64,000 nucleotides of DNA from assembly GCA_944375955.1 (NCBI GenBank), contig CALWBE010000016.1, positions 9,405 through 73,404 on the forward strand, read 5' to 3'. Shown piece after piece: positions 2 through 46,302 of the stretch. A program made the position numbers and the translations under genes. The stretch's first letter is position 1. Each line of letters begins with the position of its first letter. The notes under the pieces were generated by a model that worked only from the letters and a program-made list of their open reading frames with translations, ran no database searches and was not told the origin of the DNA. Source of the stretch: an uncultured Clostridia bacterium (GTDB taxonomy: Bacteria; Bacillota; Clostridia; Oscillospirales; CAG-382).

Positions 2-445
2 TTCGCTGCGGCAGAAGCGGCTGATATTCAGAATGAAATTATTAATTATGCTGATATCCCTGAATTCTCAATTCTCGGTGCCGTACCTACCGCCGAAGGT
101 GCCGCAGCAGAAATACCAAAACTAACCGGAAAAACAGTATCCGGTTCGGTTATACTTGTAACCGGCTGCGGCCGTGTCGGAAAACAGCTTTCCATCCTTC
201 TAAAATCCATGAACGCCGACGTATACGTCTCTGCACGCAAAAACGCAGATATTTCATGGATAGACGCTAACGGTATGAAGCCCCTCAGGACTTCTTGCAT
301 ATCTGACTGCAATATCGCTTTTGACATCATATGCAATACCGTTCCCGCCCTGATATTTGACAAAAAGACGCTTGAAAACCTCAAGGGTAATCCATCGATA
401 CTTGAACTCGCTTCAAAGCCCTACGGGGCGGGTTTTAAATTTTGA
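2..445 (+). CDS. dpaA: dipicolinate synthase subunit A (DpaA/SpoVFA), 5'/central part; starts upstream of the window and is interrupted at about 416-439
   Basis: The frame from nt 2 is open: FAAAEAADIQ...IPEFSILGAVPTAEGAAAE...VILVTGCGRVGKQLSILLKS...YVSARK...ICNTVPALIF...ILELASKP, then YGAGFKF-stop. It matches the SpoVFA Rossmann core (IPTAEG, GxGRxG, INTIPA, DLASKPGG) but lacks the last ~50 aa. Confidence 0.85.
   Translation, partial: FAAAEAADIQNEIINYADIPEFSILGAVPTAEGAAAEIPKLTGKTVSGSVILVTGCGRVGKQLSILLKSMNADVYVSARKNADISWIDANGMKPLRTSCISDCNIAFDIICNTVPALIFDKKTLENLKGNPSILELASKPYGAGFKF
415..439 (+). repeat. left junction repeat inside dpaA (candidate attL core)
   Basis: AAG CCC TAC GGG GCG GGT TTT AAA (416-439) aligns codon-for-codon with AAA CCT GCG GGG GTG GAT TTT AAA (18958-18981), 17/24 identical. 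It has an internal dyad AAAGCCC-N8-GGGTTTT (415-436). Confidence 0.6.
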
Positions 446-2677: not shown

Positions 2678-3586
2678 TTAATCTGAAAGCCTTAATTTTT
2701 TCATTCTTTTTTCAGCCTTTAAAAACAGTTCGCTTTCTACTAACGGCGCATGAGTTCCACAGACTTTATAATACTGCTCCGGACGGCATTTTCTCCGTTT
2801 ATCTGTTTTATAGTTTATTTTCGTTACAAAACCCTGAGTCAAATCTCCTTTATATGTGGGATTTGCAAGTATCCTCTTTATCATCACGGAATTCCATTTA
2901 TTGCTTTTTTGCCTATTGTCGCTTTTCATTCTCGACGGAGTCTTTATTCCGTCCGCAGTAAGTCCGCATGCTATGGCAAGCATGCTTTTTCCCGAAACAA
3001 ATTCAAGAAATATCCTTCGTACAACTCCCGCACAGCGTTCATCAGGTATCAAAAGATTTTTATCTTCTTCTGACTTTTTATATCCGTACGGTGCAGAGCT
3101 TCCTATAAATTTCCCTGCAGCTCTTTTGGAATCAAGCGCGGTCCTTACCTTTCTGCTTATATCCTTGGCATACAAGTCGTTAAATACAGCGCGGAACGGT
3201 ATCATGTCGTTTCCGTATCCGTCCCTCTCTGTATCTATCCCGTCATTTACCGCTATATACCTGATTCCGTTTACCGGAAAAAAACGCTCAATGTACTCTC
3301 CGGTTGCAATATAATCCCTGCCAAGTCTTGACATATCCTTTGTTAAAATAACTTTGAAATTTCCTTTTAATGCATCATTTACCATTCTCTTAAATTCCGG
3401 TCTTTCAAAATTCGTTCCAGTATACCCGTCGTCTATATATATTTCAGCTATCTCAAAGCCATATTTTCGGCAGTAATCTGTCAAAAACAACTTTTGCGAA
3501 AGAATGCTGTCAGATTCGCCGCCTGCTCCGTCGTCTCTTGAAAGGCGCAAATAAAGTGCGGCTTTATTTCCTTTCAATAAAAACAC
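2678..3586 (-). CDS. serine recombinase, large-serine-recombinase type (resolvase catalytic domain + recombinase domain) that ends before the zinc-ribbon/coiled-coil domain
   Basis: AALYLRLSRDDGAGGESDSILSQ contains the catalytic Ser motif of TnpX/TndX/SpoIVCA-like LSRs. DDGYTGTNFERPEFKRM, LTKDMSRLGRDY, IAVNDGIDT, SAPYGYKK and THAPLVESELF mark the recombinase domain. At 302 aa it is short of the ~450-550 aa typical for LSRs. The likely start is TTG at 3577 (GGGAGG SD 8 nt upstream) rather than GTG at 3586. Confidence 0.8.
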   Translation of the reverse strand: MFLLKGNKAALYLRLSRDDGAGGESDSILSQKLFLTDYCRKYGFEIAEIYIDDGYTGTNFERPEFKRMVNDALKGNFKVILTKDMSRLGRDYIATGEYIERFFPVNGIRYIAVNDGIDTERDGYGNDMIPFRAVFNDLYAKDISRKVRTALDSKRAAGKFIGSSAPYGYKKSEEDKNLLIPDERCAGVVRRIFLEFVSGKSMLAIACGLTADGIKTPSRMKSDNRQKSNKWNSVMIKRILANPTYKGDLTQGFVTKINYKTDKRRKCRPEQYYKVCGTHAPLVESELFLKAEKRMKKLRLSD

Positions 3587-3622
3587 CTCCCGAAAAAGCT
3601 CTTTATATACTTATTCGGGAGG
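3586..3622 (-). terminator. hairpin + T-run after proX; its 3' arm contains the recombinase SD
   Basis: Minus strand: CCTCCCGAA-19 nt-TTCGGGAGG followed by TGTTTTTATTG. The GGGAGG in the 3' arm is the only SD for the recombinase TTG/GTG start. Confidence 0.5.
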
Positions 3623-3653
3623 CTTATTTTTAATTCGCGAAAGTAAAACCTTA

Positions 3654-4202
3654 TCAAAGATCTACTACAGTATATGTATGCTTCATGGCAGGTATTATCT
3701 TTTCAATCATATCAAATGTTCGTATACGCAGGCTTGATGTGTTGACACACGGATGGCAACCTATATATTCGCTATTCAGAACATCTCTGTCAATCAGCAG
3801 TCGTACTTTTCCATTTTTGTCATTCATCAGTCCCATAACACTTACCGACCCGGGCGTTACGCCGAGATATTCCTGCATATGTCCGCTGTCCGCAAACGAC
3901 AGCCTTGATGATGATATCTGTGCTGAAAGATCCTTTGTCTTAAAAATCTTATCCTCAGGTATCATAAGCAAATAAAATGATGTCTGCTGTCTGTTGCATA
4001 AAAACAAATTCTTACATATAACTGCATCTAATACCTCATCTATATCCCTGCACACTTCCATTGTCATTGCCGGATCGTGATCAGCACGCCGGTATGAAAT
4101 TCCGAGAGCGTCTAAAAAATCGTATACCCTCATTTCTGTTTCACTGCGTCCTTTTGAATCTAAAGGCCGTCCCTCACACATTTCTATTTTCATTTTTATC
4201 AT
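3654..4202 (-). CDS. YbaK/ProX-type aminoacyl-tRNA editing (prolyl-tRNA synthetase-associated) domain protein
   Basis: VYDFLDALGISYRRADHDPAMTMEV...CKNLFLCNRQ...LGVTPGSVSVMGL...IGCHPCVNTSSL matches the ProX/YbaK fold family. The best-supported start is ATG 4193 (AAGGA 8 nt upstream). Confidence 0.7.
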   Translation of the reverse strand: MIKMKIEMCEGRPLDSKGRSETEMRVYDFLDALGISYRRADHDPAMTMEVCRDIDEVLDAVICKNLFLCNRQQTSFYLLMIPEDKIFKTKDLSAQISSSRLSFADSGHMQEYLGVTPGSVSVMGLMNDKNGKVRLLIDRDVLNSEYIGCHPCVNTSSLRIRTFDMIEKIIPAMKHTYTVVDL

Positions 4203-4632
4203 CCTTATACTTTTTTGTATTTTTTTCTTTTTTATCTTTTCGTTTTATTTTCCATGCATCTTTTTTTATCTTTGCTCTTTCATGCAATTCATGGAGCAGT
4301 CCCAGCGTTTTTTTATCATCCGGAAATATTTTTTTCATAATCAGTATCGATATTGCAATTGTGATTATCTTCTCCGGTGTCATAGGTATCCATAAAAATG
4401 CAATATATGCTCCGGAAACGGCAATCATCCAATGTATTTGAAAAACCGTTCCAAGACCCATCATCAAATATGACCAGCCATTTGTTATAAACCACGCTAT
4501 TCCGAAACATAATAAAAAACGAGGATTAGCTACTAAATAAAACGCTTTTTTCAATATATTTTCAAGGCTTTGCCATTTTATTCTTTTTTTCGTTTTATTT
4601 TTATATGAATCTGAATTTTTTTTTGTTTTCAA
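4174..4632 (-). CDS. hypothetical small membrane protein with Lys-rich termini
   Basis: 152 aa with 2-3 hydrophobic segments (FLLCFGIAWFITNGWSYLMMGLG, IAVSGAYIAFLWIP). No recognisable family. Confidence 0.45.
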   Translation of the reverse strand: MKTKKNSDSYKNKTKKRIKWQSLENILKKAFYLVANPRFLLCFGIAWFITNGWSYLMMGLGTVFQIHWMIAVSGAYIAFLWIPMTPEKIITIAISILIMKKIFPDDKKTLGLLHELHERAKIKKDAWKIKRKDKKEKNTKKYKDDKNENRNV

Positions 4633-4857
4633 AAAGTATTCTTCCTTTTTCTTCGGTATAATATATATATAATGTATTTATACTGTCTTTTTTATTTTTA
4701 TTATATATTATATACTTTGAAATTTCAACATAAATATTAAGTTTTTTCTATCTTCCGAAGATTTTTAAAATTAAGCTATTATTTGCTCTTCTTTTATTGT
4801 TATATCATTTATGATATTACTCTATACTTTTTTAATTATTCCCAAACTCTTATAAGA

Positions 4858-4875
4858 TTGTTAAAATAATAACAA
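4858..4875. promoter_or_regulatory. candidate Rex (redox-sensing repressor) operator upstream of adhE
   Basis: TTGTTAAAATAATAACAA matches the clostridial Rex consensus TTGTTAA-N4-TTAACAA at 13 of its 14 specified positions, 126 nt upstream of the adhE ATG. No rex gene is present in the window. Confidence 0.55.
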
Positions 4876-5000
4876 AGATAAAGCACATTAGGGCGTAATT
4901 GCATTATTGCATTGGTTATAAAGAATATTAATAAAGCTTTAAATGTACTTTTATCAGAAAAGTCAACAAATATATTATAATAAAATGGAGGAACATCATA

Positions 5001-7709
5001 ATGTCAGCACAGTATGAAATCGTCGACAGCGTTGAAAAACTTGAACAGGCTATTGCGAAAGTTAGAAAAGCACAACAGATTTTCGCTACCTATACGCAGG
5101 AACAGGTAGACAAAATTTTTCTTGCCGCTGCGACAGCTGCAAACAAAGCGCGTATACCGCTTGCAAAATTTGCGGTAGAAGAAACAGGTATGGGAGTAGT
5201 TGAAGATAAGGTCATTAAAAATCATTATGCTTCCGAATATATTTACAACGCCTACAAAAACACTAAAACCTGTGGAGTAATCGAGGAAGACAAAGCATAT
5301 GGAATTAAGAAAATTGCAGAACCCGTCGGTGTTATCTGCGCTGTTATTCCGACTACCAATCCAACTTCCACTGCTATTTTTAAAACGCTTATATCGCTCA
5401 AGACACGCAACGGAATTATTATAAGTCCTCATCCGCGTGCAAAACAGTCTACTATTGCTGCTGCAAAGGTAGTCCTTGAAGCTGCAGTAGCTGCTGGAGC
5501 TCCCGATGGAATAATCAGCTGGATAGATATCCCCTCTCTCGAAATGACTAATCTTCTCATGAAAGAAGCAGATATAATTCTTGCAACAGGCGGACCCGGA
5601 ATGGTAAAAGCCGCTTATTCTAGCGGAAAGCCTGCTGTAGGTGTCGGAGCCGGAAATACTCCCGCTATAATCGACGATACGGCCGATATTCTGCTCGCTG
5701 TAAACTCTATCATACATTCAAAAACATTTGACAACGGTATGATATGCGCTTCCGAGCAGTCTGTTATCGTTCTTGAATCTATTTATGACGCCGTTAAAGA
5801 AGAATTCGCTTCACGCGGATGCTATTTCTTAAATCCCGAAGAAACAGAAAAAGTCCGCAAAACTATTATCATTAACGGCGCTCTCAATGCTAAAATAGTA
5901 GGTCAAAAGGCTGCCACCATTGCCAAACTTGCAGGAGTAACGGTTCCGGAAGGCACTAAAATAATTATCGGAGAAGTAGAAAGCGTCGATCTTTCTGAAG
6001 AATTTGCTCATGAAAAACTCTCCCCCGTTCTTGCAATGTATAAGGCAAAAGATATACACGATGCGTTCGAAAAAGCCGAAAGACTTATAGCGGACGGCGG
6101 TTATGGTCACACATCTTCTATTTATCTAAATGCAGTTACGGAAAAAGAAAAGCTTGATGAATTTGCATCTCGCATGAAAACCTGTCGTATACTTGTCAAT
6201 ACTCCCTCTTCCCAGGGCGGTATCGGAGATCTTTACAACTTTAAACTTGCGCCTTCACTTACCCTCGGATGCGGCTCTTGGGGCGGAAACAGTGTTTCTG
6301 AAAACGTTGGCGTAAAACATCTCATTAACATTAAAACCGTTGCCGAGAGGAGAGAAAATATGCTTTGGTTCCGTGCACCTGAAAAAATATATATCAAAAA
6401 AGGCTGTCTGCCGGTCGCCCTTGAGGAACTCAGATCGGTTATGGGCAAAAAACGTGCTTTTATCGTCACTGACAGCTTCCTTTATAAAAACGGATATACG
6501 AAACCTATTACTGATAAACTCGAAGAAATGGGCATCGCTTATACCACTTTCTCAGACGTCGCTCCAGATCCTACACTCGCTTGCGCTAAGGCCGGTGCCG
6601 AACTCATGAGATCCTTCGCTCCTGACTGCATTATTGCTATCGGAGGCGGTTCAGCTATGGATGCCGGAAAAATTATGTGGGTGCTTTATGAACATCCCGA
6701 AGCTGACTTCATGGATATGGCTATGCGCTTCGTTGATATCCGCAAGAGAATTTATACATTCCCGAAAATGGGTGAAAAAGCTTACTTTATCGCCATTCCT
6801 ACTTCAGCAGGTACCGGCTCTGAAGTTACTCCTTTTGCTGTTATAACAGATGAAAAATCCGGCGTTAAATATCCTCTCGCCGATTATGAGCTTCTTCCTA
6901 AAATGGCTATTATTGATGCCGACTTCCATATGACTGCTCCTAAAGGACTTACTGCAGCCTCCGGTATTGATGCTGTTACTCACGCGCTTGAAGCATATGC
7001 TTCTGTAATGGCGACGGATTATACCGATTCTCTCGCTCTGCGCGCTCTTAAAGTTATTTTCGAATATCTTCCTATTGCTTATGAAAACGGTCCCAACGAT
7101 CCTGTCGCTCGTGAAAAAATGGCGAATGCCGCTACTATGGCAGGTATGGCATTTGCTAATGCTTTCCTCGGTGTATGCCACTCGATGGCTCATAAGCTCG
7201 GTGCATTCCATCACCTGCCTCACGGTGTAGCAAATGCCTTAATGATCGATGAGGTACTGCGTTTCAATGCAGCTGAAACCCCTGTTAAAATGGGAACTTT
7301 CTCTCAGTATGATCATCCTCATACTCTCGCGCGCTATGCAGAAGTAGCCGACTATCTCGGAATTCCCGGAAAAACCGACAGTGAAAAACTTGAAAATCTT
7401 ATTGCAGCAATCGATGAACTGAAAGTTAAGGTTGGTATAAAACCGACAATAAAAGATTATGTCGCAGATGAAAAAGACTTCCTCGATCGTCTTGATGAAA
7501 TGACTGAACAGGCATTTGACGACCAATGCACCGGCGCAAATCCGCGTTATCCGCTTATGAGCGAAATAAAACAAATGTATCTTAATGCTTATTACGGCAA
7601 AAAATTTGTGGAACTTCCTACTCCGGATGAACGTCAACTTGAATCAAATGATGATGCGCATGATATCAAAAAGCCCTACCGCAAAGCAAAAAACGGCATG
7701 AAGAAATAA
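5001..7709 (+). CDS. adhE: bifunctional acetaldehyde-CoA/alcohol dehydrogenase AdhE
   Basis: 902 aa. It has an N-terminal ALDH domain (PTTNPTSTAIFK, MICASEQS) plus a C-terminal Fe-ADH domain (GGGSAMDAGK, HSMAHKLG). RBS GGAGG lies upstream. Confidence 0.95.
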   Translation: MSAQYEIVDSVEKLEQAIAKVRKAQQIFATYTQEQVDKIFLAAATAANKARIPLAKFAVEETGMGVVEDKVIKNHYASEYIYNAYKNTKTCGVIEEDKAYGIKKIAEPVGVICAVIPTTNPTSTAIFKTLISLKTRNGIIISPHPRAKQSTIAAAKVVLEAAVAAGAPDGIISWIDIPSLEMTNLLMKEADIILATGGPGMVKAAYSSGKPAVGVGAGNTPAIIDDTADILLAVNSIIHSKTFDNGMICASEQSVIVLESIYDAVKEEFASRGCYFLNPEETEKVRKTIIINGALNAKIVGQKAATIAKLAGVTVPEGTKIIIGEVESVDLSEEFAHEKLSPVLAMYKAKDIHDAFEKAERLIADGGYGHTSSIYLNAVTEKEKLDEFASRMKTCRILVNTPSSQGGIGDLYNFKLAPSLTLGCGSWGGNSVSENVGVKHLINIKTVAERRENMLWFRAPEKIYIKKGCLPVALEELRSVMGKKRAFIVTDSFLYKNGYTKPITDKLEEMGIAYTTFSDVAPDPTLACAKAGAELMRSFAPDCIIAIGGGSAMDAGKIMWVLYEHPEADFMDMAMRFVDIRKRIYTFPKMGEKAYFIAIPTSAGTGSEVTPFAVITDEKSGVKYPLADYELLPKMAIIDADFHMTAPKGLTAASGIDAVTHALEAYASVMATDYTDSLALRALKVIFEYLPIAYENGPNDPVAREKMANAATMAGMAFANAFLGVCHSMAHKLGAFHHLPHGVANALMIDEVLRFNAAETPVKMGTFSQYDHPHTLARYAEVADYLGIPGKTDSEKLENLIAAIDELKVKVGIKPTIKDYVADEKDFLDRLDEMTEQAFDDQCTGANPRYPLMSEIKQMYLNAYYGKKFVELPTPDERQLESNDDAHDIKKPYRKAKNGMKK

Positions 7710-7716
7710 GATATAA

Positions 7717-8481
7717 GTGAGGAGAACGAACATGAAACTTGACAGAGTTATTGCAGTTAGAAACAACAAAACCGTATACCGCGACGGCGATAAATGTATC
7801 AAAGTGTTTAACGAAGAATATTCAAAAGCTGACGTTCTCAACGAAGCTCTTAATCAGGCTCGTATTGAAGAGACCGGCTTGCTTATTCCGAGAATTCTTG
7901 AAGTTACCATGATAGACGGGAAATGGGCTATTGTATCTGATTATATTAAAGGAAAAACTCTTGCACAGATTATGCAGGAGGATCCTGATAACAAAAACAA
8001 ATATATTGAGCAGCTTGTTGATCTACAGATTTTGATGCATTCAAAAACCTGCCCGCTTCTTAACAAGCTGAAAGATAAAATGAACCGCAAGATAAGTCAG
8101 GCTGAACTTGACGCAACGACACGTTATGATCTTCATACGCGCCTTGAAGGAATGCCTAAACACAACAAAGTTTGTCATGGCGACTTTAACCCCTCAAATA
8201 TTATTGTCGACGAAAACGGCAAAATGTATATTATTGACTGGGCGCATGCGACTCAAGGTAATGCTTCCGCCGATGCTGCAAGAACTTACCTGCTCTTCTG
8301 GCTGGACGGCGACATTGAAAGCGCAAACACATATCTTGATCTTTTCTGCAAAAAGAGCGATACGGCAAAACAATATGTTCAGAAATGGATGCCTATTGTC
8401 GCTGCTTCTCAGTCTGTAAAAGGCAATCAAAAAGAGCGCGAGTTTCTGCTTTCATGGGTAGATGTCGTTGATTATGAATAA
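7717..8481 (+). CDS. APH/choline-kinase-fold phosphotransferase (protein-kinase-like)
   Basis: HGDFNPSNIIVDENGKMYIIDW carries the HxDxxxxN catalytic loop plus the IDW metal-binding motif of the aminoglycoside phosphotransferase/ChoK family. It starts 8 nt after adhE. Confidence 0.7.
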   Translation: MRRTNMKLDRVIAVRNNKTVYRDGDKCIKVFNEEYSKADVLNEALNQARIEETGLLIPRILEVTMIDGKWAIVSDYIKGKTLAQIMQEDPDNKNKYIEQLVDLQILMHSKTCPLLNKLKDKMNRKISQAELDATTRYDLHTRLEGMPKHNKVCHGDFNPSNIIVDENGKMYIIDWAHATQGNASADAARTYLLFWLDGDIESANTYLDLFCKKSDTAKQYVQKWMPIVAASQSVKGNQKEREFLLSWVDVVDYE

Positions 8482-8502
8482 TTATTTTCGGAGGATATAC
8501 AA

Positions 8503-8742
8503 ATGAAAGTTACCATTTGCATAGGAAGCTCATGCCACATAAAAGGTTCGCGTCAGGTCGTTGAGCAACTTCAGTATCTTATACGTCAAAAAAATGTTGA
8601 AGACAAAGTTGAACTCGGCGGAACTTTTTGTATGGGAAAATGTCAAATGGGTGTGTGTGTCGGAATCGATGACGAAGTTTTTTCAGTAACACCCGATACA
8701 GTTGATGATTTCTTTGAAAAACAAATTTTGACAAGGATATAA
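8503..8742 (+). CDS. thioredoxin-like [2Fe-2S] ferredoxin domain protein
   Basis: 79 aa with a Cys pattern C-x4-C...C-x3-C (ICIGSSCHIKG ... FCMGKCQ). Confidence 0.7.
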   Translation: MKVTICIGSSCHIKGSRQVVEQLQYLIRQKNVEDKVELGGTFCMGKCQMGVCVGIDDEVFSVTPDTVDDFFEKQILTRI

Positions 8743-8746
8743 GCTT

Positions 8747-9007
8747 ATGATAATTCAAATCTGCATCGGCAGTTCATGCCATCTTAAAGGCTCAGAAGAA
8801 GTTGTAGAGCTTTTTAAAAAGGCTATTGACAAATACAGTCTTAACGATGATATCACTCTTGCCGGCAGCTTTTGTTTTGGAAAATGCAATCGTACAGGTG
8901 TTACTGTAACGGTAGATGACGAGGTGTTTACCGGTATAACAAAAGAGAACTTTGAAGGCTTTTTTAAAGAAAAAGTTTTAGGAAAAATCAGTCGCGAAAA
9001 GGAGTGA
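8747..9007 (+). CDS. thioredoxin-like [2Fe-2S] ferredoxin domain protein (paralogue of the previous gene)
   Basis: 86 aa with the same pattern (ICIGSSCHLKG ... FCFGKCN). It is clearly similar to 8503-8742. Confidence 0.7.
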   Translation: MIIQICIGSSCHLKGSEEVVELFKKAIDKYSLNDDITLAGSFCFGKCNRTGVTVTVDDEVFTGITKENFEGFFKEKVLGKISREKE

Positions 9008-9013
9008 CCGTAA

Positions 9014-10690
9014 ATGCCTAATTGTCTTACGCTCAAAAAATCCAACTGTAAAAACTGCTATAAATGTATAAGGCACTGCCCCGTAAAATCAATAAGATTT
9101 TCAGGAAATCAGGCTCATATTATCGGTAACGAATGCATTCTTTGCGGACAATGCTTTGTAGTTTGTCCGCAAAACGCAAAAGAAATTGTAAATGAAACTG
9201 AAAAAGCAAAGGTTTTACTCGCTTCCGGAGATCCTGTAGTAGTCAGTCTCGCTCCGTCTTTTATTGCAAATTATGACGGTGTAGGAATAGAATCTATGCG
9301 TGACGCTCTGAAAAAACTCGGATTTTACGACGCTGAAGAGACCGCTGTCGGCGCCACAATGGTAAAAAGAGATTATGAAAGGCTTTTAAGAGAGGAAGGC
9401 AGAGATATTCTTATATCGTCATGCTGTCATTCCGTTAATCTTTTAATTCAAAAATATTTTCCACGCGAGCTTGCTTATCTTGCTGATACCGTTTCTCCTA
9501 TGCAGGCGCATTGTATAGACATAAAAAAGCGCATACCGGGCGCCAAAACAGTATTTATCGGTCCGTGTGTAGCTAAAAAAGACGAGGCAGAACATTATGA
9601 AGGCATTGTCGACGCAGTTTTGACATTTGAAGAGCTCACAGAATGGCTTGCCGAAGAAAATATAGAGCTTGAAAAGAAAATCACCCCTAAAGAAGAAAGC
9701 CTTGCAAGATTTTTCCCCACGTCAGGCGGAATTCTGAAAACAATGACTGAACGGCTTCCCGAATATACATATATGGTAGTTGACGGTGTTGAAAACTGTA
9801 TTGCTGCGCTCCGTGAGATAGAGCAGGGAAAAATACACAAATGCTTTATTGAAATGTCCGCGTGCGTTGGCAGCTGTATAGGTGGTCCGGTTATGGAAAA
9901 ATATCATCGCCATCCTGTCGAAGACTATATGGCAGTATCTAATTTCGCAGGCAAAAAAGATTTTGAAACCCCTCAGCCTGAAATTGCCGTTATGAAAAAA
10001 AGCTTTGAATATATAGAGCGTAAAAGTTCTATGCCAACCGAAACCGAAATTACTGAAATTCTCCGGCAAATGGGCAAGTTTACTCCTGCCCAGGAATTAA
10101 ACTGCGGTTCATGCGGATATGATACCTGCCGCGAAAAAGCTATCGCTATATATCAAGGGAAAGCCGAAATATCCATGTGTCTGCCTTTCCTTAAAGAAAA
10201 AGCTGAAAGCTTTTCTGATACTATAGTTAAAAATACTCCTAACGGACTTATTGTTTTAAATGACAAGCTTGAGGTTCAACAGATAAATTCTGCGGCATGC
10301 AAAATTATGAATATTAGATCGGCTTCAGATGTGCTTGGTGACCAGGTCATAAGAATCCTTGATCCTTCGGTTTTTGTAAAAGTTCTTGAAAGCGGTAGAG
10401 GCATATACGATGATCATGTTTATCTTGCAGAATATGGTAAATATATAGAGCAAACCGTAGTCTACGACAAAGAATCGCATATGCTTATATGCATAATGCG
10501 TGATATAACAAGTGAAGAAAACGAACGCGAAAAGAAAGAAAATATCAGCCGTCAAACAATTGAGGTAGCTGATAAAGTAGTTGACAAGCAAATGAGAATC
10601 GTACAGGAAATCGCTTCTTTGCTCGGTGAAACTGCCGCCGAAACCAAAATAGCGCTTTCTAAGCTTAAGGAGTCAATATCAAATGAATGA
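9014..10690 (+). CDS. hydS: putative sensory [FeFe]-hydrogenase (group C, HydS-like) with a C-terminal PAS domain
   Basis: It has 2x CxxCxxCxxxCP ferredoxin motifs. The H-cluster-like motifs are SSCCHS, GPCVAKKDE and MSACVGSCIGGP. An extra Cys motif CGSCGYDTC-x16-C (Cx2Cx4Cx16C) follows, then a PAS-like segment (TPNGLIVLNDKLEVQQINSAACKIM). Confidence 0.8.
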   Translation: MPNCLTLKKSNCKNCYKCIRHCPVKSIRFSGNQAHIIGNECILCGQCFVVCPQNAKEIVNETEKAKVLLASGDPVVVSLAPSFIANYDGVGIESMRDALKKLGFYDAEETAVGATMVKRDYERLLREEGRDILISSCCHSVNLLIQKYFPRELAYLADTVSPMQAHCIDIKKRIPGAKTVFIGPCVAKKDEAEHYEGIVDAVLTFEELTEWLAEENIELEKKITPKEESLARFFPTSGGILKTMTERLPEYTYMVVDGVENCIAALREIEQGKIHKCFIEMSACVGSCIGGPVMEKYHRHPVEDYMAVSNFAGKKDFETPQPEIAVMKKSFEYIERKSSMPTETEITEILRQMGKFTPAQELNCGSCGYDTCREKAIAIYQGKAEISMCLPFLKEKAESFSDTIVKNTPNGLIVLNDKLEVQQINSAACKIMNIRSASDVLGDQVIRILDPSVFVKVLESGRGIYDDHVYLAEYGKYIEQTVVYDKESHMLICIMRDITSEENEREKKENISRQTIEVADKVVDKQMRIVQEIASLLGETAAETKIALSKLKESISNE

Positions 10691-11855
10691 TTTATGTGCC
10701 GATATAGGATATAAAAGTGTAAATCACTTCGGCGAACAGCTTTGCGGCGATCATGTTGATATAATTGAACAGGAAGACGGTTCGGAAGTCATCGTTCTTG
10801 CCGACGGACTCGGCAGCGGCGTAAAAGCCAGTATACTTTCTACACTTACATCTAAAATTATCTCTACAATGATGGCATCCGGTCTTCCGCTTGAAGAATG
10901 TGTCTCAACAATCGCCGCAACACTGCCTGTATGTTCGGTGCGCGGAGTTGCTTATTCGACTTTTACTATCATAAACCTTATAAATAATGAAACCGCCGAG
11001 TTTATTCAATATGATAACCCACAGATAATTATGATCAGAAATGAAAAATTTACCGATTATCCGAAATCTGAAATAAATATCGACGGCAAAAAAATATATA
11101 AATCCGTAATAAAGCTCCAGGAAAATGATGTATTTGTCGCTATGAGCGACGGATGTCCTCATGCCGGGATAGGTACCGCATACAATTTTGGCTGGAAATA
11201 TGAAGATATTGCATCGTTTGTAGAAACTATTATTCCGGCAGGATACACGTCAAAAACGCTTTCAACCATACTTATTAACGAATGCACCAAACTTTATGAC
11301 GGCAAGCCGGGCGATGATGCTACAGCTTGTGTTATACGCATTAGAAAAAGAGTACCAATGAACCTGCTGTTCGGTCCGCCTTCAAACCGTGATGACTGCG
11401 GAAGAATGATGTCTCTGTTTTTCTCTAAAGAAGGCAAGCACATAATCTGCGGAGGTACAACTTCTTCAATAGCTGCCGACTATCTTAAAAAACCTCTCCG
11501 ACCAACTCTTAATTTTGAACGCTCTGATGTCCCTCCTATCGCTGAACTTGAGGGCGTTGACCTCGTTACTGAAGGAGTTATAACCGTAAACAAGGTTTTA
11601 GAATATGCCAAAGACTATATTCAGGATAACTCAGGTTATGAAAAATGGAGTTGTGGAAGAGATGGAGCTTCACTTATATGTCGGATGCTTTTTGAAGAAG
11701 CTACTGATATAAACTTCTTTGTAGGCAGAGCCGTTAACCCCGCCCATCAAAACCCGGATCTTCCCATAAATTTCAACATAAAAATGAATCTTGTAAAAGA
11801 ACTTTCCGAATGTCTGAAAAAAATGGGTAAAAAAATAAAGGTAAGCTATTTTTAA
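10683..11855 (+). CDS. PP2C/SpoIIE-family serine phosphatase
   Basis: LCGDHVDIIEQEDGSEVIVLADGLGSGVKASILS and AMSDGCPHAG are PP2C-type metal-binding motifs. It overlaps the hydS stop by 8 nt. Confidence 0.75.
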   Translation: MNDLCADIGYKSVNHFGEQLCGDHVDIIEQEDGSEVIVLADGLGSGVKASILSTLTSKIISTMMASGLPLEECVSTIAATLPVCSVRGVAYSTFTIINLINNETAEFIQYDNPQIIMIRNEKFTDYPKSEINIDGKKIYKSVIKLQENDVFVAMSDGCPHAGIGTAYNFGWKYEDIASFVETIIPAGYTSKTLSTILINECTKLYDGKPGDDATACVIRIRKRVPMNLLFGPPSNRDDCGRMMSLFFSKEGKHIICGGTTSSIAADYLKKPLRPTLNFERSDVPPIAELEGVDLVTEGVITVNKVLEYAKDYIQDNSGYEKWSCGRDGASLICRMLFEEATDINFFVGRAVNPAHQNPDLPINFNIKMNLVKELSECLKKMGKKIKVSYF

Positions 11856-11867
11856 GGAGTATAATAA

Positions 11868-13292
11868 ATGAGAAAATTTGATACCAAGGTACAGTATCTT
11901 AAATATAAGGTTCTGCGTGAAGTTGCAAGGCAAGCCTGGAACGACACTCTTCTCGACAATGTTCTTGAAATTCCTAAAAAGATAGTTCCGGGAAAAACGC
12001 CGACTATGCGTTGCTGCGTCTATAAAGAACGTGCAATACTTTCGGAACGAGTACATCTTGCCATGGGCGGAAATAAAGAAAATCCGAATGTTATTGAGGT
12101 AATAGAAATCGCCTGCGATGAATGTCCGGCTGCCGGATATTCTGTTACCGATTCATGCAGAGGCTGTCTTGCTCATAGGTGTGAAGATGTCTGCAAGCGC
12201 GGAGCAATATCGTTTGATCACAACCATGTTGCTCATATCGATAAAACAAAGTGCGTCGAATGCGGTATGTGTGCTAAAGTTTGTCCTTATACCGCCATTA
12301 TAAATCGCAAACGTCCTTGTCAGAATGCATGCAAAATACACGCAATTTCTATCAATGAAGAAAACGCAGCTACAATAGACAATGAAAAGTGCACTTCATG
12401 CGGTGCATGCGTTTATCAATGTCCTTTCGGTGCTATCAGCGATAAATCTTACATCTTGAATGTTATAGATATGCTGAAAAAAAGCTGTGAAGGTAAAAAT
12501 TATAAGATGTATGCAATAGTCGCTCCATCTATTTCAAGCCAGTTCAATTATGCAAAACTCGGTCAGGTAATAACCGGTCTTAAAAAGCTTGGATTCTTTA
12601 CCGTGGTTGAAGCTGCTCTCGGAGCAGATATGGTCGCGCAAGCCGAATCAAAAGAACTTTATGAAAAAGGTTTTCTGACAAGTTCTTGTTGCCCTGCTTT
12701 TGTATCTTATATTAAATCGAATTTTCCTGCTCTTGTTCAATATATTTCTCATAATCTTTCTCCTATGGCTACTATCGCAAAATATATAAAGGAAACAGAC
12801 AAAACTGCAAAAACTGTATTTATTGGTCCTTGTACGGCAAAAAAAGCTGAAATCCAGCTTGATACCGTAAAACCATATATAGATTCGGTAATGACATTTG
12901 AGGAACTTCAGGCTCTTTTTGACAGCCGCGACATAGACATAACTACTCTTGAAGAAAGTATCCTTGACAACGCGTCATATTTCGGAAGAATATTCGCCAG
13001 AAGCGGAGGGCTTTCTGATGCCGTGGCACAAGGTCTTATCGAACAAGGACTTACAGATTTTAAATTAAAGGCATGCGCCTGCGACGGAATAGAAGCCTGC
13101 CGCACCGCTTTACTCAAAAAAAGCAAAAATGTGCTTGACGCAAACTTTATTGAAGGCATGGCATGTGTAGGAGGCTGCATAGGAGGCGCCGGATGTCTGA
13201 CTCACGGCGAAAAAAACAAAGATGAGGTAGACAAATACGGAAAAGAAGCTTATGAAAAAACAATAACAGAAGCTATTTCAGTTCTTAAATAG
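11868..13292 (+). CDS. [FeFe]-hydrogenase, monomeric group-B-like catalytic subunit
   Basis: It has ferredoxin Cys clusters and the H-cluster motifs TSSCCPAF, FIGPCTAKKAE and GMACVGGCIGGAGC. The N-terminus MRKFDTKVQYLKYKVLREV is typical of the B-type family. Confidence 0.85.
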   Translation: MRKFDTKVQYLKYKVLREVARQAWNDTLLDNVLEIPKKIVPGKTPTMRCCVYKERAILSERVHLAMGGNKENPNVIEVIEIACDECPAAGYSVTDSCRGCLAHRCEDVCKRGAISFDHNHVAHIDKTKCVECGMCAKVCPYTAIINRKRPCQNACKIHAISINEENAATIDNEKCTSCGACVYQCPFGAISDKSYILNVIDMLKKSCEGKNYKMYAIVAPSISSQFNYAKLGQVITGLKKLGFFTVVEAALGADMVAQAESKELYEKGFLTSSCCPAFVSYIKSNFPALVQYISHNLSPMATIAKYIKETDKTAKTVFIGPCTAKKAEIQLDTVKPYIDSVMTFEELQALFDSRDIDITTLEESILDNASYFGRIFARSGGLSDAVAQGLIEQGLTDFKLKACACDGIEACRTALLKKSKNVLDANFIEGMACVGGCIGGAGCLTHGEKNKDEVDKYGKEAYEKTITEAISVLK

Positions 13293-13490
13293 TAATCTCC
13301 AAGTTTATTTTCTAAAACCAATGCTTCAAATATTATGGTTTATTTGATTTAAAATATAAAATCCGTGTATACTTTAAAAGCATACACGCATTTATTTTAT
13401 TGAAAAAACAGCATTTAATTTATATTGACTTTTTAAAATATAAAGAATAAAATATATCCGACAGAAATATTTTCGGAGGTTAACTAAGTT

Positions 13491-14777
13491 ATGGTTTATT
13501 CTAAGAATCTGACAGAAAAATATAATGTAGATATATTTGTTGCCGGAGGCGGAGCTGCAGGTGTGGCAGCTGCCATTGCCGCATCTAAGCAAGGTAAATC
13601 TGTATTTCTTGCCGAGGCAACAGGAGCGTTTGGCGGACTTGGAACCTCAGGCTTGGTTCCGTCTTTTGCGCCGTTCGGAGACGGAATTAATATGCTTGCT
13701 TCCGGTATAGGTCTTGATATAAGAAAAAAAGTTTCCAAAGCTTTTCCTATCGATATCTACTGGGCTCCCATAAACGCCGAAGAACTGAAACGTGTATACG
13801 ATGATGAAATGATTTCTGCAGGTGTTGAATTCTCTTTTTTCACGACAGTATGTGATGTCGTGGTATCAGACGGTCATATTGACTATGTAGTATGCACTGC
13901 AAAATCCGGCATGTTTGCGGTGAAGGCTAAAATTTACATAGACTGCACCGGAGACGGAGATCTTTGTTATCTCGGCGGAGGGGACTACACTGTCGGAGAG
14001 GGTGACGGAAAAGTCATGCCCGGAACTTTATGCAGTCTTTGGGCTAATATCGACTGGTCAAATGTAAGCGGACCTCAAAATGCTTTTATTGAAAAGGCAT
14101 ACTCAGATGGTGTGCTTTCATATGAAGATCGTCATCTTCCCGGCATGTTTAAAAGAGATGATCTTCTCGGAGGCGGAAATATAGGTCATCTTTTCAATAT
14201 TGATCCAACTGACGAAAAATCTCTTACCAACTCTATGATATGGGGCAGAAAGTCGATGCTCGAATACGAGCGCTATTACAAAAAATATCTTAAAGGTTTT
14301 GAAAATATGATATTATGCGCTACCGGTTCTGTGCCCGGTGTCAGAGAATCAAGACGTATCACTTGCGACTATGCTCTTTGTGTTGATGATTTTATCAGCC
14401 GTGCCGTTTTTGAAGATGAAATAGGCAGATATTGCTATCCGGTAGATATACACGTTATGAATACTGATAAAAAGGAATATGAGAGATTTAGCAATGAGTA
14501 TGAAAATTTAAGATATAAGCAGGGTGAATCGTATGGTATACCATACAGAAGTCTTATATCAAAATCGTTTTCCAATCTGCTTACCGCCGGTAGATGCATG
14601 GGTACTGACAGAAAAATGCAGGCTTCAATACGCGTAATGCCGGGATGCTTTATTACAGGTCAGGCAGCAGGAGCTGCCGCTGCTCTCGCATCAAACTGCG
14701 GTGACGTCCGAAAAATCAACCATTCTTTGTTAGTTTCAGAGCTTAAAAAATTAGGTGCTTTTCTACCTAATGCATAG
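13491..14777 (+). CDS. FAD-dependent oxidoreductase
   Basis: N-terminal dinucleotide fold DIFVAGGGAAGVAAAIAASKQGKSVFLAE. 428 aa. Confidence 0.7.
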   Translation: MVYSKNLTEKYNVDIFVAGGGAAGVAAAIAASKQGKSVFLAEATGAFGGLGTSGLVPSFAPFGDGINMLASGIGLDIRKKVSKAFPIDIYWAPINAEELKRVYDDEMISAGVEFSFFTTVCDVVVSDGHIDYVVCTAKSGMFAVKAKIYIDCTGDGDLCYLGGGDYTVGEGDGKVMPGTLCSLWANIDWSNVSGPQNAFIEKAYSDGVLSYEDRHLPGMFKRDDLLGGGNIGHLFNIDPTDEKSLTNSMIWGRKSMLEYERYYKKYLKGFENMILCATGSVPGVRESRRITCDYALCVDDFISRAVFEDEIGRYCYPVDIHVMNTDKKEYERFSNEYENLRYKQGESYGIPYRSLISKSFSNLLTAGRCMGTDRKMQASIRVMPGCFITGQAAGAAAALASNCGDVRKINHSLLVSELKKLGAFLPNA

Positions 14778-14813
14778 AATTAAAAATTAGGTGCTTATTC
14801 TACCTATTGCATA
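14743..14813 (+). repeat. tandem ~35-bp duplication of the 3' end of the FAD oxidoreductase gene
   Basis: TTAAAAAATTAGGTGCTTTTCTACCTAATGCATA (14743-14776) is followed by TTAAAAATTAGGTGCTTATTCTACCTATTGCATA (14780-13). Confidence 0.8.
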
Positions 14814-15123
14814 AAATTTAAAACCAAGCAATACAATATTGAACTTTTTTGAGTTCCTTTTCGACGTTTTGTTCTCAATAGAAATCATTGAATGTTTAAA
14901 TGAATAGCCCAATAATTATATTTAATTTGGAAAGGTGATGATATAATAAGAGCAAAAGTAATTGGTATCTTACTCATATTGTGGACATTCTTGGTATTCT
15001 GATGGAACTAATAATGTTTGAGAATATTGGTATTGCTTGCATATTGGAGGCATAAAGGGGTTTGCTGTCTGGCATTGGCTTTGTGTCTTATACATCGAAA
15101 TAAATAATAAAGGAGAAATTAAA

Positions 15124-16041
15124 ATGAAAAGAACATTATCAGTTATCCTGGCAATTATTTTAGCTATGTCATTGTTAGCGTGCAGTAGTTATTCTGATGA
15201 AGACATTAAGGAGCCATCTAATGTTGCTACTGGCAGCAACGCTGGAGAAGGACAGAAGCAAGAGCAAGTAGAGGAAACAGAGGTACCTGAGGAAACAGAA
15301 GTAACTATTAATGAGACCGTTCTTGTTGATGAGGCTGGCATAAAAGTTACTGCTAAAAGCCTTGAAGTTGACGGGATTTTTGGTCCCGAAATCAAACTGC
15401 TTATTGAGAATAATTCTGGTAAAGACCTAACTTTCCAATGTCGCAATGCTTCCGTTAATGGCTACATGGTTGAAACCATGATGTCTGTTGATGTTGTGAA
15501 TGGTAAGAAAGCAAATGATAGTTTAACTTTTATGAAATCCGATTTTGAGGCGTGTGGGATTGAAAAAATTGCTGATATGGAAATTGCATTCCATATTTTT
15601 GATATGGCTGAATGGGAAACTTATTTGGATACTGCCTCAATCCAGATCAAGACTTCTATCGCTGATAACTTTGAGTACACCTATGATGATAGCGGAGATT
15701 TGGCCTATGAAGGAAATGGTATAAAGATTATAATCAAGGGACTTGCAGAAAATGAATCCATATTTGGTCCCAGCATCGTGACTTATATTGAAAACACTGG
15801 AGATAAGGATATAACTGTCCAAACAAGAGATGTATCCATTAATGGATTTATGGCGTCTGCCATATTCTCCTGCGATGTACTTGCAGGCAAACGTGCCGTG
15901 GATACTATTACTTTCATGGAGTCTGACCTTGAGGAAAATGAAATTACTGCGATTGAGGATATAGAACTGTCATTCCATATTTTTGACTCTGATGACTGGA
16001 AAACTATTGTTGATACAGAAATCGTAAAAATTAGCTTCTGA
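15124..16041 (+). CDS. lipoprotein with two tandem copies of an uncharacterised ~110-aa domain
   Basis: AAAGGAG RBS lies before ATG 15124. The signal peptide MKRTLSVILAIILAMSLLA-CSS has a lipobox. An acidic linker is followed by repeat A (15319-15651) and repeat B (15697-16038), which are mutually alignable. Confidence 0.7.
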   Translation: MKRTLSVILAIILAMSLLACSSYSDEDIKEPSNVATGSNAGEGQKQEQVEETEVPEETEVTINETVLVDEAGIKVTAKSLEVDGIFGPEIKLLIENNSGKDLTFQCRNASVNGYMVETMMSVDVVNGKKANDSLTFMKSDFEACGIEKIADMEIAFHIFDMAEWETYLDTASIQIKTSIADNFEYTYDDSGDLAYEGNGIKIIIKGLAENESIFGPSIVTYIENTGDKDITVQTRDVSINGFMASAIFSCDVLAGKRAVDTITFMESDLEENEITAIEDIELSFHIFDSDDWKTIVDTEIVKISF

Positions 16042-16200
16042 TAAGATATAAAACAAAGCTCCACCATTTCGGGTGTAGTCTCGTTTTATATTCAAAGAAT
16101 AAATTTACATTAGATTTTGGATTTTAGTCTAAGGGAACACAAAAGGAAATTGAGTGTTTTGAATTGCTTTTTAAAATAATATTTATGATTTAATATAAAA

Positions 16201-16233
16201 AATCCGCAGCAAAATAAAAATTTGCTGCGGATT
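16201..16233. terminator. bidirectional terminator between the lipoprotein gene and serS
   Basis: AATCCGCAGCAAA-loop-TTTGCTGCGGATT flanked by A-run and T-run. Confidence 0.7.
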
Positions 16234-16241
16234 TTTGTATT

Positions 16242-17528
16242 TTATTTTTTAGGAATTATTTTTTCAGCTCCTCCCATATACGGGCGAAGAGCAACAGGAA
16301 TATTTACGCTTCCGTCTTCATTAAGGTTATTTTCAAGAAATGCTATAAGCATTCTTGGAGGTGCAACAACTGTATTGTTGAGTGTATGAGCAAGATATTT
16401 TGAATTCTTTCCGCTTACACGGATCTTTAATCTTCTTGCCTGCGCATCTCCGAGATTCGAGCAGCTTCCGACCTCAAAATATTTCTTTTGTCTCGGCGAC
16501 CATGCCTCAACATCAAGTGATTTTACTTTAAGATCGGCAAGATCTCCCGAACAGCATTCAAGCGTTCTTACAGGAATATCCATAGAGCGGAAAAGGTCGA
16601 CTGTATTGCGCCACAATTTTTCAAACCACATCGGACTTTCCTCGGGTTTGCATACTACAATCATTTCCTGCTTTTCAAACTGGTGTATGCGGTAAACTCC
16701 GCGCTCTTCTATGCCGTGCGCTCCCTTCTCCTTACGGAAACACGGCGAATAGCTTGTCAGCGTCTGCGGAAGCTGTTCCTCCGGAATTATCTGATCAATA
16801 AACTTTCCTATCATAGAATGCTCTGAAGTACCTATAAGATAAAGGTCTTCTCCTTCTATCTTATACATCATAGCTTCCATTTCGGCAAAACTCATAACTC
16901 CGGTAACAACATCCGAACGAATCATAAACGGAGGTACACAATAGGTAAAACCGCGGTTTATCATAAAATCACGCGCATATGAAATAACTGCCGAATGCAG
17001 TCTTGCTATATCGCCCATAAGATAATAAAACCCGTTGCCGGCAACACGGCGCGCACTGTCAAGATCTATACCGTCAAAGCGTTCCATTATATCAGTATGA
17101 TACGGAATTTCAAAATCGGGCACAACCGGGTCCCCGAACTTCTCTATCTCTACATTCTCGCTGTCGTCTTTTCCTATCGGCACTGACGGATCTATTATCT
17201 GAGGTATTACCATCATTATTTTCTTGATTTTTTCTTCGTATTCCGACTCAAGCGCTTCGCATTCCGCAAGACGCGCCGCCTGCTCGTTAACTTTTTTCTT
17301 CATTTCTTCGGCTTCTTCTTTTTTACCCTGCCCCATAAGCGCGCCGATCATCTTTGAGCATTTGTTACGGTCTGCCCTGAGTCCGTCGGCTTCAAGCTTT
17401 ACAGCACGGGATTTCGCATCAAGCTCAATAACTTCATCTACCAAAGGCAGCTTTGAGTCCTGAAACTTATTTCTGATATTTTGTTTTACAGCGTCCGGAT
17501 TTTCACGCAAAAATTTAATGTCTATCAT
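16242..17528 (-). CDS. serS: seryl-tRNA synthetase
   Basis: 428 aa. MIDIKFLRENPD..., an N-terminal coiled-coil arm and a class II core (TSEHSMIG, FRKEKGAHG, GSCSNLGDAQARR). Confidence 0.95.
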   Translation of the reverse strand: MIDIKFLRENPDAVKQNIRNKFQDSKLPLVDEVIELDAKSRAVKLEADGLRADRNKCSKMIGALMGQGKKEEAEEMKKKVNEQAARLAECEALESEYEEKIKKIMMVIPQIIDPSVPIGKDDSENVEIEKFGDPVVPDFEIPYHTDIMERFDGIDLDSARRVAGNGFYYLMGDIARLHSAVISYARDFMINRGFTYCVPPFMIRSDVVTGVMSFAEMEAMMYKIEGEDLYLIGTSEHSMIGKFIDQIIPEEQLPQTLTSYSPCFRKEKGAHGIEERGVYRIHQFEKQEMIVVCKPEESPMWFEKLWRNTVDLFRSMDIPVRTLECCSGDLADLKVKSLDVEAWSPRQKKYFEVGSCSNLGDAQARRLKIRVSGKNSKYLAHTLNNTVVAPPRMLIAFLENNLNEDGSVNIPVALRPYMGGAEKIIPKK

Positions 17529-46297: not shown

Positions 46298-46302
46298 CAT
46301 AA

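Follow-up and report, generated by a model that had tools for sequence, protein, structure and literature searches.

In the 64,000-nucleotide stretch analysed here (the window, to whose positions all coordinates refer), a part of contig CALWBE010000016.1 from an uncultured Clostridia bacterium, the spore gene dpaA (spoVFA) is split by an insert of 18,542 bp whose two junctions closely resemble one another. These junctions, we conclude, very probably serve as recombination sites for an insert that is old and has been inherited vertically. The best explanation of the evidence as a whole, and one that we regard as likely, is that they represent attL and attR of a dpaA-splitting element deleted by its own serine recombinase of about 300 amino acids. 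A preliminary description, made from the sequence alone, had recognised the repeated junctions and interpreted them as att-like sites bound by a recombinase dimer. This interpretation is supported by our finding that the sites flank an insert which encodes a serine recombinase. What had not been anticipated was that this recombinase is a conserved form without zinc ribbon or coiled coil, nor that the insert is old, inherited vertically and not of phage origin. Throughout, L-numbers designate relative loci and P-numbers library proteins.

The 5' part of dpaA occupies positions 2–426 of the forward strand and runs off the start of the window, and its frame continues into the element up to a stop codon at 443–445. 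This frame (2–445) encodes the C-terminal two thirds of the N-terminal part of DpaA, the relatives of which carry the PF16924 DpaA_N domain, and its translation ends ...LELASKPYGAGFKF. The 3' part is found at 18967–19113 (+) and reads GVDFKTAEKL...ERGFTV, with a stop codon that overlaps the start codon of dpaB (spoVFB; 19110–19670, +; NF006161, TIGR02852 and PF02441). DpaA breaks off after KPYG and resumes at VDF, placing the split at 426/18969. A protein search with the reconstructed DpaA revealed a break at the same codon in 11 of the 15 closest clusters (50–97% identical to the query). In these 11, KPYG is followed by an unrelated tail starting A/E-G/E/D-F/L, and the remaining four are uninterrupted and read ELASKPYG[V/I]DF. 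The split was found in at least 11 divergent lineages, among which DpaA is 47–69% identical, and the contigs of relatives repeat a single architecture of dpaA-N, element, dpaA-C and dpaB. Junction DNA was recovered for 12 attL and 8 attR sites, and the same junctions, in the same register, are kept in the other lineages; the frame of the dpaA 3' part is open and conserved in six of them.

Joining the two halves in silico at a GG dinucleotide shared by both junctions restores the frame as ...AAG CCC TAC GGG GTG GAT TTT AAA... (KPYGVDFK), and the product, ELASKPYG joined to VDFKTAEK, is the sequence of uninterrupted relatives. The empty-site comparison that the preliminary description had proposed is therefore satisfied, since intact homologues match a hybrid of the left half of one repeat and the right half of the other. 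The same comparison goes further than had been thought possible. The crossover had been considered not deducible, with KPAGVDF and KPYGVDF both regarded as sensible outcomes, but the KPYG[V/I]DF of uninterrupted relatives excludes KPAGVDF and points to exchange within the shared G run, anywhere within which the product would be identical.

Each junction comprises a 28-bp site consisting of a 13-nt arm, GG and a second 13-nt arm, the arms being inverted around the centre with the consensus TTYAAAAYCCNMC. attL (412–439, +; TTCAAAGCCCTAC-GG-GGCGGGTTTTAAA) is composed of the B arm (412–424), the centre (425–426) and the P' arm (427–439), and attR (18954–18981, +; TTTAAAACCTGCG-GG-GGTGGATTTTAAA) of the P arm (18954–18966), the centre (18967–18968) and the B' arm (18969–18981). 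When B' and P' are read as reverse complements, they conform, like B and P, to TTYAAAAYCCNMC in one register. Because all arms represent one half-site motif, attL (B-GG-P') and attR (P-GG-B') look like a direct repeat of which each copy is itself palindromic. Both copies lie where the preliminary description had placed them, and its identity of 17 of 24 positions in the codon-aligned register holds, but its width of 24–25 bp falls short of the full 28-bp site. Moreover, positions 440–445 of its interval are merely the read-through tail and stop codon of the truncated open reading frame (ORF) and lie outside the site. As it had also reported, similarity ends outside the repeat block, dropping to chance level, and each copy is an imperfect palindrome. 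Nine of the 13 arm positions are complementary in each, against a background mean of 3.3 of 13 and a probability of 0.002 for nine or more.

Taken by itself, the 17/24 match is modest evidence. When the best ungapped 24-mer was sought between two random 60-nt stretches of the window, about 1% of the random pairs reached at least 17 identities, but the break in dpaA had determined in advance which two positions were to be compared. When a 28-nt consensus from several loci, among them the present one, was run against the window, it matched solely at 412–439 and 18954–18981, both on the forward strand, with no further copy found anywhere in the 64 kb; 0.01 matches would be expected by chance, and two matches occurred in none of 100 shuffles.

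Junctions were aligned on the first G of the shared GGGG (nine attL and five attR, with a sixth attR, from L011, added to the half-site table). In this alignment, consensus mirror positions −1/+2 through −13/+14 are all complementary, so that the axis of dyad symmetry coincides, for all four half-sites, with the first two Gs (425–426 and 18967–18968). Judging from this symmetry and from the general mechanism of serine recombinases, the crossover most likely lies within the G run, with these two GG dinucleotides, at which the join is in frame, as the 2-nt overlap. As both centres have the same polarity, the outcome of recombination would be deletion of an 18,542-bp circle. Reconstructed attP sites are complementary at 9–12 of 13 arm positions in seven of eight loci, and attB sites at 6–9 of 13, the background being that given above for the two copies.

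Dyad symmetry of this kind could in principle reflect transcription terminator hairpins or chance and not the binding of a protein. A simple terminator scan does flag 415–436 (+) as a weak hairpin followed by T-rich sequence, a result that counts against recombination sites, and the raw chance of the 17/24 match is about 1%. Furthermore, a scan of viral contigs for attP-like patterns returned terminator hairpins only, all 21 matches being unrelated AAAACCCGCC-GG-GGCGGGTTTT hairpins in high-GC phages. The stem at attL is, however, a poor one (7 pairs with an 8-nt loop), and a separate, clearer and bidirectional-looking hairpin is present at about 520–565, between the truncated dpaA ORF and a convergent symporter gene. 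A terminator would be pointless at attR, which lies upstream of a gene fragment, and would leave the register of the four half-sites, the restoration of the frame and the conservation over 12 loci unexplained. The comparative data bring this alternative close to refutation already, and we judge it extremely improbable.

Conservation of the sites extends into DNA that has no coding function. The non-coding, element-side arms have mean pairwise identities of 0.73 (attL, +4 to +15) and 0.75 (attR, −13 to −1), which fall to 0.29 and 0.42, respectively, deeper into the element. The P' arm is conserved in nine lineages out to +14, after which identity is 0.29; the P arm is conserved from −13 to −1 in the five profiled junctions and recurs in L011. 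The two outer arm ends of L114 have changed in concert, from TTT...AAA to TGC...GCA, leaving a palindrome of 12/13. On the gene side, the TCA (Ser) and GGG (Gly) codons of the B arm are fixed in all nine split lineages, whereas elsewhere in DpaA-N the 24 four- or six-fold degenerate columns in which the amino acid is invariant all use more than one codon (Fisher, about 0.009). In the B' arm, GGG-GTG-GAT is fixed in the five split lineages compared, and other such columns vary. No such fixation is seen in 54 uninterrupted dpaA genes, comprising 52 metagenome-scan loci together with L001 and L008, where these codons vary freely. Judged by these codon comparisons, the gene-side arms are constrained as sites beyond the needs of coding. 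L001, a 41%-identical intact gene used as an empty-site control, was all that a scan of genome contigs with the reconstructed DpaA returned, and the 80 loci kept from a metagenome scan with a DpaA alignment match the intact query at 34–42%, with no split site among them.

These patterns bear directly on whether the interruption could be a fossil, in which dpaA was inactivated in an ancestor, nothing excises, and dipicolinate is made by another route or not at all. Some clostridia without dpaAB do use EtfA, the recombinase of L006 and L007 is truncated at its 5' end, and no excised form was present in the databases searched. Yet both halves of dpaA have stayed open and conserved across lineages that are 47–69% identical, and the 3' part still overlaps the start of dpaB. 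Likewise, the non-coding arms were kept while neighbouring DNA was scrambled, synonymous sites beneath the arms are frozen, the P and P' arms change together (L114), and the recombinase keeps all of its catalytic residues. Such conservation would not be expected without selection for rejoining, and we therefore consider a fossil improbable.

The history of the insert points in the same direction. Pairwise identities of DpaA-N, the recombinase and the symporter encoded in the element correlate with one another (r 0.72–0.75; seven loci; exact Mantel 2/5040), and the GC content of the insert is 0.390 against 0.391 for the rest of the window. The seryl-tRNA synthetase gene carried by the element (serS; 16242–17528, −; TIGR00414 equivalog, 407 bits; also in L002 and L009–L012) encodes a protein 93–96% identical across lineages in which DpaA is 47–69% identical. 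Because of this co-divergence, the serS pattern and the host-like GC content, the element is best regarded as old and vertically inherited, not recently mobile; the comparisons point to prolonged vertical inheritance under selection.

The putative agent of excision is encoded at 2678–3577 (−), a serine recombinase of 299 amino acids with a TTG start, matching PF00239 (E 2e-22) and PF07508 (E 4e-20) but giving no Pfam match to the zinc ribbon PF13408. It is the sole serine recombinase ORF in any frame of the window, the remaining large ORFs of which represent ordinary metabolic genes. Every element recovered (1.85–18.5 kb) has a recombinase gene, of the full ~300-residue form except in L006 and L007, and all ten of the short-recombinase contexts retrieved lie within a split dpaA. 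About 25 relatives at 58–99% identity are without exception 294–306 residues long, whereas most of those below about 55% identity have about 500 residues and PF13408. In the alignment, the short forms end 10–20 residues past the recombinase domain, just before the zinc ribbon of the long forms begins. Y9, R11, S13 and S83-R84-L85-G86-R87-D88 are invariant in 31 sequences. By sequence search, alignment to SprA reaches just residue ~295 of 545, and an AlphaFold (AF2) model (mean pLDDT 84.6) has SprA in DNA complexes as its best Foldseek match, over about 304 columns, and also matches a phiC31 fragment described as 'N-terminal and recombinase domains'. When five long relatives were used to build a profile of the zinc-ribbon/coiled-coil module, control phage enzymes were recovered with E 2e-36 and 8e-31, but neither the window nor the ten other loci with a short-recombinase gene yielded a remnant in any frame (E ≥ 0.6). 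The idea of a truncated pseudogene was ruled out by the conserved length, the catalytic residues and the absence of a C-terminal remnant, and the short length has thus been conserved as such and does not result from a recent truncation.

The core short clade was monophyletic in 270 of 300 bootstraps. Relatives on viral contigs are at most 48% identical, and the 23 best, which were checked for length, are full length (507–540 residues). No dpaA fragment was found beside viral recombinase relatives at any of 80 loci, and a scan with the full-length relative P0145 found nothing. A phage carrying a full-length relative might conceivably be directed at this dpaA site as well. The best matches to the short-recombinase profile in the representative library (P0253–P0257) are 620–810 residues long and contain the Resolvase domain twice and, in most cases, the Recombinase domain twice; one zinc ribbon is present in the majority, and all fall outside the short clade. 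They are probably tandem large serine recombinase (LSR) genes called as one protein. The short clade seems to be a small offshoot on which the representative-library search says nothing more.

In both sequence and fold, the catalytic and recombinase domains of the short enzyme are closest to those of LSRs such as SprA of SPbeta, LI/A118, phiC31 and Bxb1. It shares with them the catalytic domain and PF07508, and its sites, like theirs, are pseudo-palindromic around a central, non-palindromic dinucleotide, the position of cleavage being deduced from symmetry. LSRs, however, possess a zinc ribbon with an embedded coiled coil, recognise attP and attB sites of about 50 and 40 bp with differently spaced outer motifs, and are controlled in direction by a recombination directionality factor (RDF) (PMC3783163). 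None of these structural features is seen here. Nor does the protein resemble a small resolvase or invertase: it has 299 residues against 180–200, its C-terminal half is an LSR-type recombinase domain and not a short helix-turn-helix, and accessory res subsites or an enhancer were not found next to the crossover. No conserved DNA was detected beyond the 28 bp on the attL side, a comparison that an enhancer of other sequence could escape. On these grounds the enzyme lacks two defining features of LSRs, the zinc-ribbon/coiled-coil module and the long, asymmetric att sites, and yet is no small resolvase or invertase either.

The dimensions of the site agree with this architecture. In the solved complex of the Listeria integrase with attP, the recombinase domain covers half-site positions 1–12, the zinc-ribbon domain reads a motif at 16–24 in attP and 11–19 in attB, and the coiled coil carried on the zinc-ribbon domain sets site identity and direction (PMC3783163). 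The conserved arm of the dpaA sites corresponds to half-site positions 1–14 and fits the recombinase-domain footprint. Conservation ends 13 nt from the centre, with no outer motif for a zinc-ribbon domain to read. With conservation up to position 14 and four equivalent half-sites, the sites are just what a two-domain enzyme would need.

It could nonetheless be that the att sites are real and excision occurs, but that the short recombinase does not suffice and is helped or replaced by a full-length LSR encoded elsewhere, a host DNA-bending protein or a small, so far unrecognised partner that would make up for the lost DNA-binding or synapsis function. Zinc ribbon and coiled coil are central to binding and synapsis in characterised LSRs (PMC3783163), an engineered coiled-coil deletion is inefficient in vitro (PMC5499577), numerous LSR paralogues are frequent in Firmicute genomes, and a small conserved ORF without family match sits in the core elements. 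Set against this are the extent of the conserved site, which stops 13 nt from its centre with no outer zinc-ribbon motif, and the conservation of the short form itself, which has its catalytic residues intact and co-diverges with dpaA. Furthermore, the 64-kb window holds no second recombinase, L116 and L117 are without the small ORF, and L117 (1.85 kb) consists of BacA and the recombinase alone. We consider the need for such a helper unlikely, if clearly less so than a fossil.

In the mechanism that we favour, excision by the element's own enzyme, a dimer of the recombinase would bind each 28-bp site and two dimers would synapse. Strands would be cut with a 2-nt stagger at GG (425–426 and 18967–18968), rotated and religated. 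This would release the 18,542-bp circle carrying attP, TTTAAAACCTGCG-GG-GGCGGGTTTTAAA (predicted junction TTTAAAACCTGCGGGGGCGGGTTTTAAATTTTG), and leave attB, ...ELASKPYGVDFKTAEK... (predicted junction TTCAAAGCCCTACGGGGTGGATTTTAAAACC), in an intact dpaA translationally coupled to dpaB. Expression of the dpaAB genes in the mother cell, under the control of sigmaK, has been described (bioRxiv 10.1101/2022.02.25.481979). If skin, vfbin, SPbeta and gin are a guide, excision would take place in this terminally differentiated cell, in which dpaAB is expressed, and the forespore would keep the element. No directionality factor would be needed, and intramolecular excision would be favoured over re-integration. 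Such RDF-independent, excision-biased behaviour is to be expected because the enzyme is without the zinc-ribbon/coiled-coil module, and the timing would be set by expression of the recombinase. No RDF candidate common to all elements is evident, RDFs having no common signature. Precedent for behaviour of this kind is provided by the coiled-coil-deleted Listeria integrase (Int-deltaCC), which performs intramolecular attL × attR deletion without RDF, integrates poorly between molecules and has lost site discrimination (PMC5499577). Int-deltaCC is, however, a laboratory construct that keeps the zinc ribbon and long sites, whereas the short family has lost the whole C-terminal module and uses compact sites.

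Several observations weigh against this mechanism. Int-deltaCC yields only a small fraction of deletion product in vitro (PMC5499577), and characterised LSRs owe much of their DNA binding to the zinc ribbon and the stability of synapsis to the coiled coil, so that a natural enzyme without both modules might be weak or dependent on a partner. No excised attB or attP junction of the same species was present in the databases searched, and the closest DpaA (97% identical) is also split. All of the organisms are uncultured, represented by metagenome-assembled genomes or metagenome contigs annotated at most as Oscillospiraceae or Ruminococcaceae, and their sporulation is undocumented. More distant short forms are not cleanly separated from full-length relatives in a simple tree. 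The recombinase of L006 and L007 has lost its first ~50 codons, including the catalytic serine, indicating that the system can decay. Lastly, the attP of L117 is palindromic at only 6 of 13 positions, its P arm resembling B' instead.

L117 is the smallest (1.85 kb) and most divergent element, and its DpaA reads G-L-D-V at the site. Its junctions, in dpaA orientation (the reverse complement of the stored locus), have their centres at about 10005 (attL) and 11851 (attR). The P arm (TTCGTCATCACGG) matches the reverse complement of B' at 9 of 13 positions and that of P' at 6 of 13, and attL and attR are each more palindromic than attP. In L006 (8847–9659) and L007 (8036–8797), the truncated recombinase abuts unrelated DNA with a DUF6017 gene, and dpaA-N and attL are intact; here the switch may be decaying or have been struck by a second insertion.

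Programmed excision by serine recombinases is established for sigK (skin), spoVFB (vfbin), spoVR, spsM (SPbeta), gerE (gin) and yabG. The dpaA element has attributes of such intervening elements, the class of skin, vfbin, vrin, SPbeta, gin and yin: it splits a mother-cell sporulation gene, has its own recombinase gene (truncated in L006 and L007) and is bounded by att sites with a shared core. Skin of Bacillus subtilis and Clostridioides difficile likewise splits a mother-cell gene (sigK), encodes a serine recombinase (SpoIVCA), has att sites with a short core, restores the reading frame and is inherited vertically through the spore (PMC6957869; bioRxiv 10.1101/2022.02.25.481979). In contrast to the dpaA element, skin is prophage-derived (14–48 kb). 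Its recombinase SpoIVCA, with about 500 amino acids, is of the full-length large serine type and depends on a directionality factor (Skr; CD1234 in C. difficile). The dpaA element departs from skin in its target, in its ~300-residue enzyme without zinc ribbon or coiled coil, in having no evident RDF candidate and in its housekeeping-like cargo.

Vfbin of Bacillus weihenstephanensis KBAB4 interrupts the same dipicolinate synthase operon, in spoVFB/dpaB, which is rejoined during sporulation (Abe et al. 2013, as cited in PMC4191935 and PMC6957869). It differs from the dpaA element in having the subunit B gene as its target, a host among the Bacilli and phage-related genes (PMC4191935). Gin, in gerE of Bacillus cereus, is also a non-prophage insert in a sporulation gene, with a serine recombinase and inverted-repeat att sites around a short core (PMC5595907). 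Unlike the short enzyme, however, its recombinase GirC has a mass of 58 kDa, and excision strictly needs the 6.5-kDa RDF GirX. Gin also carries three recombinase genes, is restricted to some strains of two Bacillus species and has been suggested to be horizontally transferable (PMC5595907), whereas the dpaA element co-diverges with its host gene. In Anabaena heterocysts, XisF is a serine recombinase that excises the fdxN element, again a gene insert in a terminally differentiated cell, albeit in cyanobacteria and with a different target and sites. The XisF NCBIfam model gives a weak, partial match to the short recombinase (positions 26–277 of 465), far below cut-off.

We found no report of an intervening element in dpaA/spoVFA, or of a natural serine recombinase ending after the recombinase domain, in a literature search whose coverage left much subscription literature outside. 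As far as that search reaches, the dpaA target, the truncated recombinase and the compact sites appear to be new, the class of system being known from skin, vfbin and gin. As a system, the dpaA element would by analogy work like skin or gin.

The region preceding the recombinase gene offers a clue to how its expression might be timed. A hairpin at 3586–3623 (−) contains the Shine-Dalgarno sequence of the recombinase in its 3' strand, followed by a U-run and the start codon, and folds as a single sequence with −23.5 kcal/mol (z −5.5). L002, L009, L010, L011 and L117 have equivalent hairpins whose stems differ in sequence; folding energies span −23 to −28 kcal/mol across loci (z −4.2 to −5.7), with a weaker structure in L117. 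Over the region 3578–3640 (−), stem sequences differ among loci in a compensatory way. Single-sequence folds were used because the loops do not align and the RNAalifold consensus is consequently weak. Two boxes are conserved, [G/T]AAT[C/T]AA immediately 5' of the stem and an [A/C]ATA[A/G]GTA-like one in the loop, and in five loci their separation is exactly 14 nt. Compared by eye with sigmaE and sigmaK promoters, the boxes agree only partially and inconsistently from locus to locus, and they are not ascribed to any sigma factor. Possibly, a promoter in this arrangement initiates transcription inside the loop, in which case a free ribosome-binding site would be present on its transcripts alone.

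It is tempting to speculate on a broader scale, and the following proposal is possible though slightly on the doubtful side. The ~300-residue proteins may form a natural third architectural class of serine recombinase, built from catalytic and recombinase domains without zinc ribbon or coiled coil, that alone performs precise, RDF-independent, excision-biased recombination on symmetric 28-bp sites, domesticated as a developmental dpaA switch in an Oscillospiraceae-like clade and timed by a promoter within the hairpin, which would mask the Shine-Dalgarno sequence on transcripts reading through from upstream.

If excision does occur as envisaged, dpaA would join the short list of sporulation genes rejoined in a programmed manner, and the phenomenon would extend to uncultured gut and rumen-type Oscillospiraceae. 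An LSR-derived enzyme without the module held responsible for site identity, synapsis and directionality appears to have been long kept in nature. This raises testable questions as to the minimal machinery of serine integrases, how synapsis proceeds without coiled coils, whether loss of the module alone makes a one-way excisionase and whether a 300-residue enzyme with 28-bp sites could serve as a compact tool for genome engineering. The remnant of a mobile element would seem to have become a fixed means of host gene regulation, trapping housekeeping genes such as serS within an excisable segment. Indeed, were serS present as a sole copy, loss of the element from the germ line would be lethal. 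The conserved truncated recombinase and its compact, symmetric sites make the finding more interesting than the preliminary description conveyed.

The compact element of the core clade (5.0–5.95 kb) holds the symporter, a T-box, the recombinase, an editing protein (uncalled in L012), the small ORF and the seryl-tRNA synthetase. In the window, the sodium:solute symporter (SSF) is encoded at 621–2234 (−; PF00474), as it is in L002, L003, L006, L009–L012 and L114, and is preceded by a T-box leader at 2301–2578 (−; Rfam RF00230, 104 bits), also found in L002 (10023–10272), L010 (10958–11211) and L114 (2412–2672). At the specifier position of the window T-box the codon seems to be UAC (Tyr), suggesting that the symporter transports an amino acid and is regulated through tRNA charging. 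The idea of a serine-themed cargo was dropped, as this specifier does not look like a serine codon. A YbaK-like aminoacyl-tRNA editing-domain protein (3654–4202, −; PF04073) occupies the same position in L002 and L009–L011, and the small lysine-rich ORF (4174–4632, −; no family match) has a counterpart encoding 102–139 amino acids at the same position in L009–L012.

Relative to L002 and L009–L012, about 11.6 kb have been added to the window element between its small ORF and serS (4633–16241), along with a LysR gene by attR (17529–18953). The former includes a lineage-specific cargo block (5001–16041, +) that encodes AdhE, a kinase, two 2Fe-2S ferredoxins, a PAS-containing [FeFe]-hydrogenase-like protein, a SpoIIE-type phosphatase, an [FeFe] hydrogenase, an FAD oxidoreductase and a putative lipoprotein. 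The LysR-type regulator (17957–18901, −; PF00126) is likewise lineage-specific, lying next to attR and absent from compact elements. Ordinary chromosomal genes have thus been gathered up by the window element, and its cargo, judged by the annotations, is housekeeping-like and not phage-like. More distant recombinases (55–61% identical) also reside in a split dpaA, with other cargo: the L114 element (4.45 kb) contains the recombinase, the symporter and GH39, that of L117 (1.85 kb) is limited to the recombinase and BacA, and the recombinase of L116 lies directly against dpaA-N.

Outside the element, a PFK-GlgB-GlgC-GlgD-GlgA cluster is situated at 40145–47373 (−), about 27 kb from dpaB and in opposite orientation. 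In other loci (L002, 14137–18407; L009–L012) this cluster directly follows dpaB, and its displacement in the window may result from an inversion or other rearrangement, one end of which would lie immediately behind dpaB, at about 19.7 kb.

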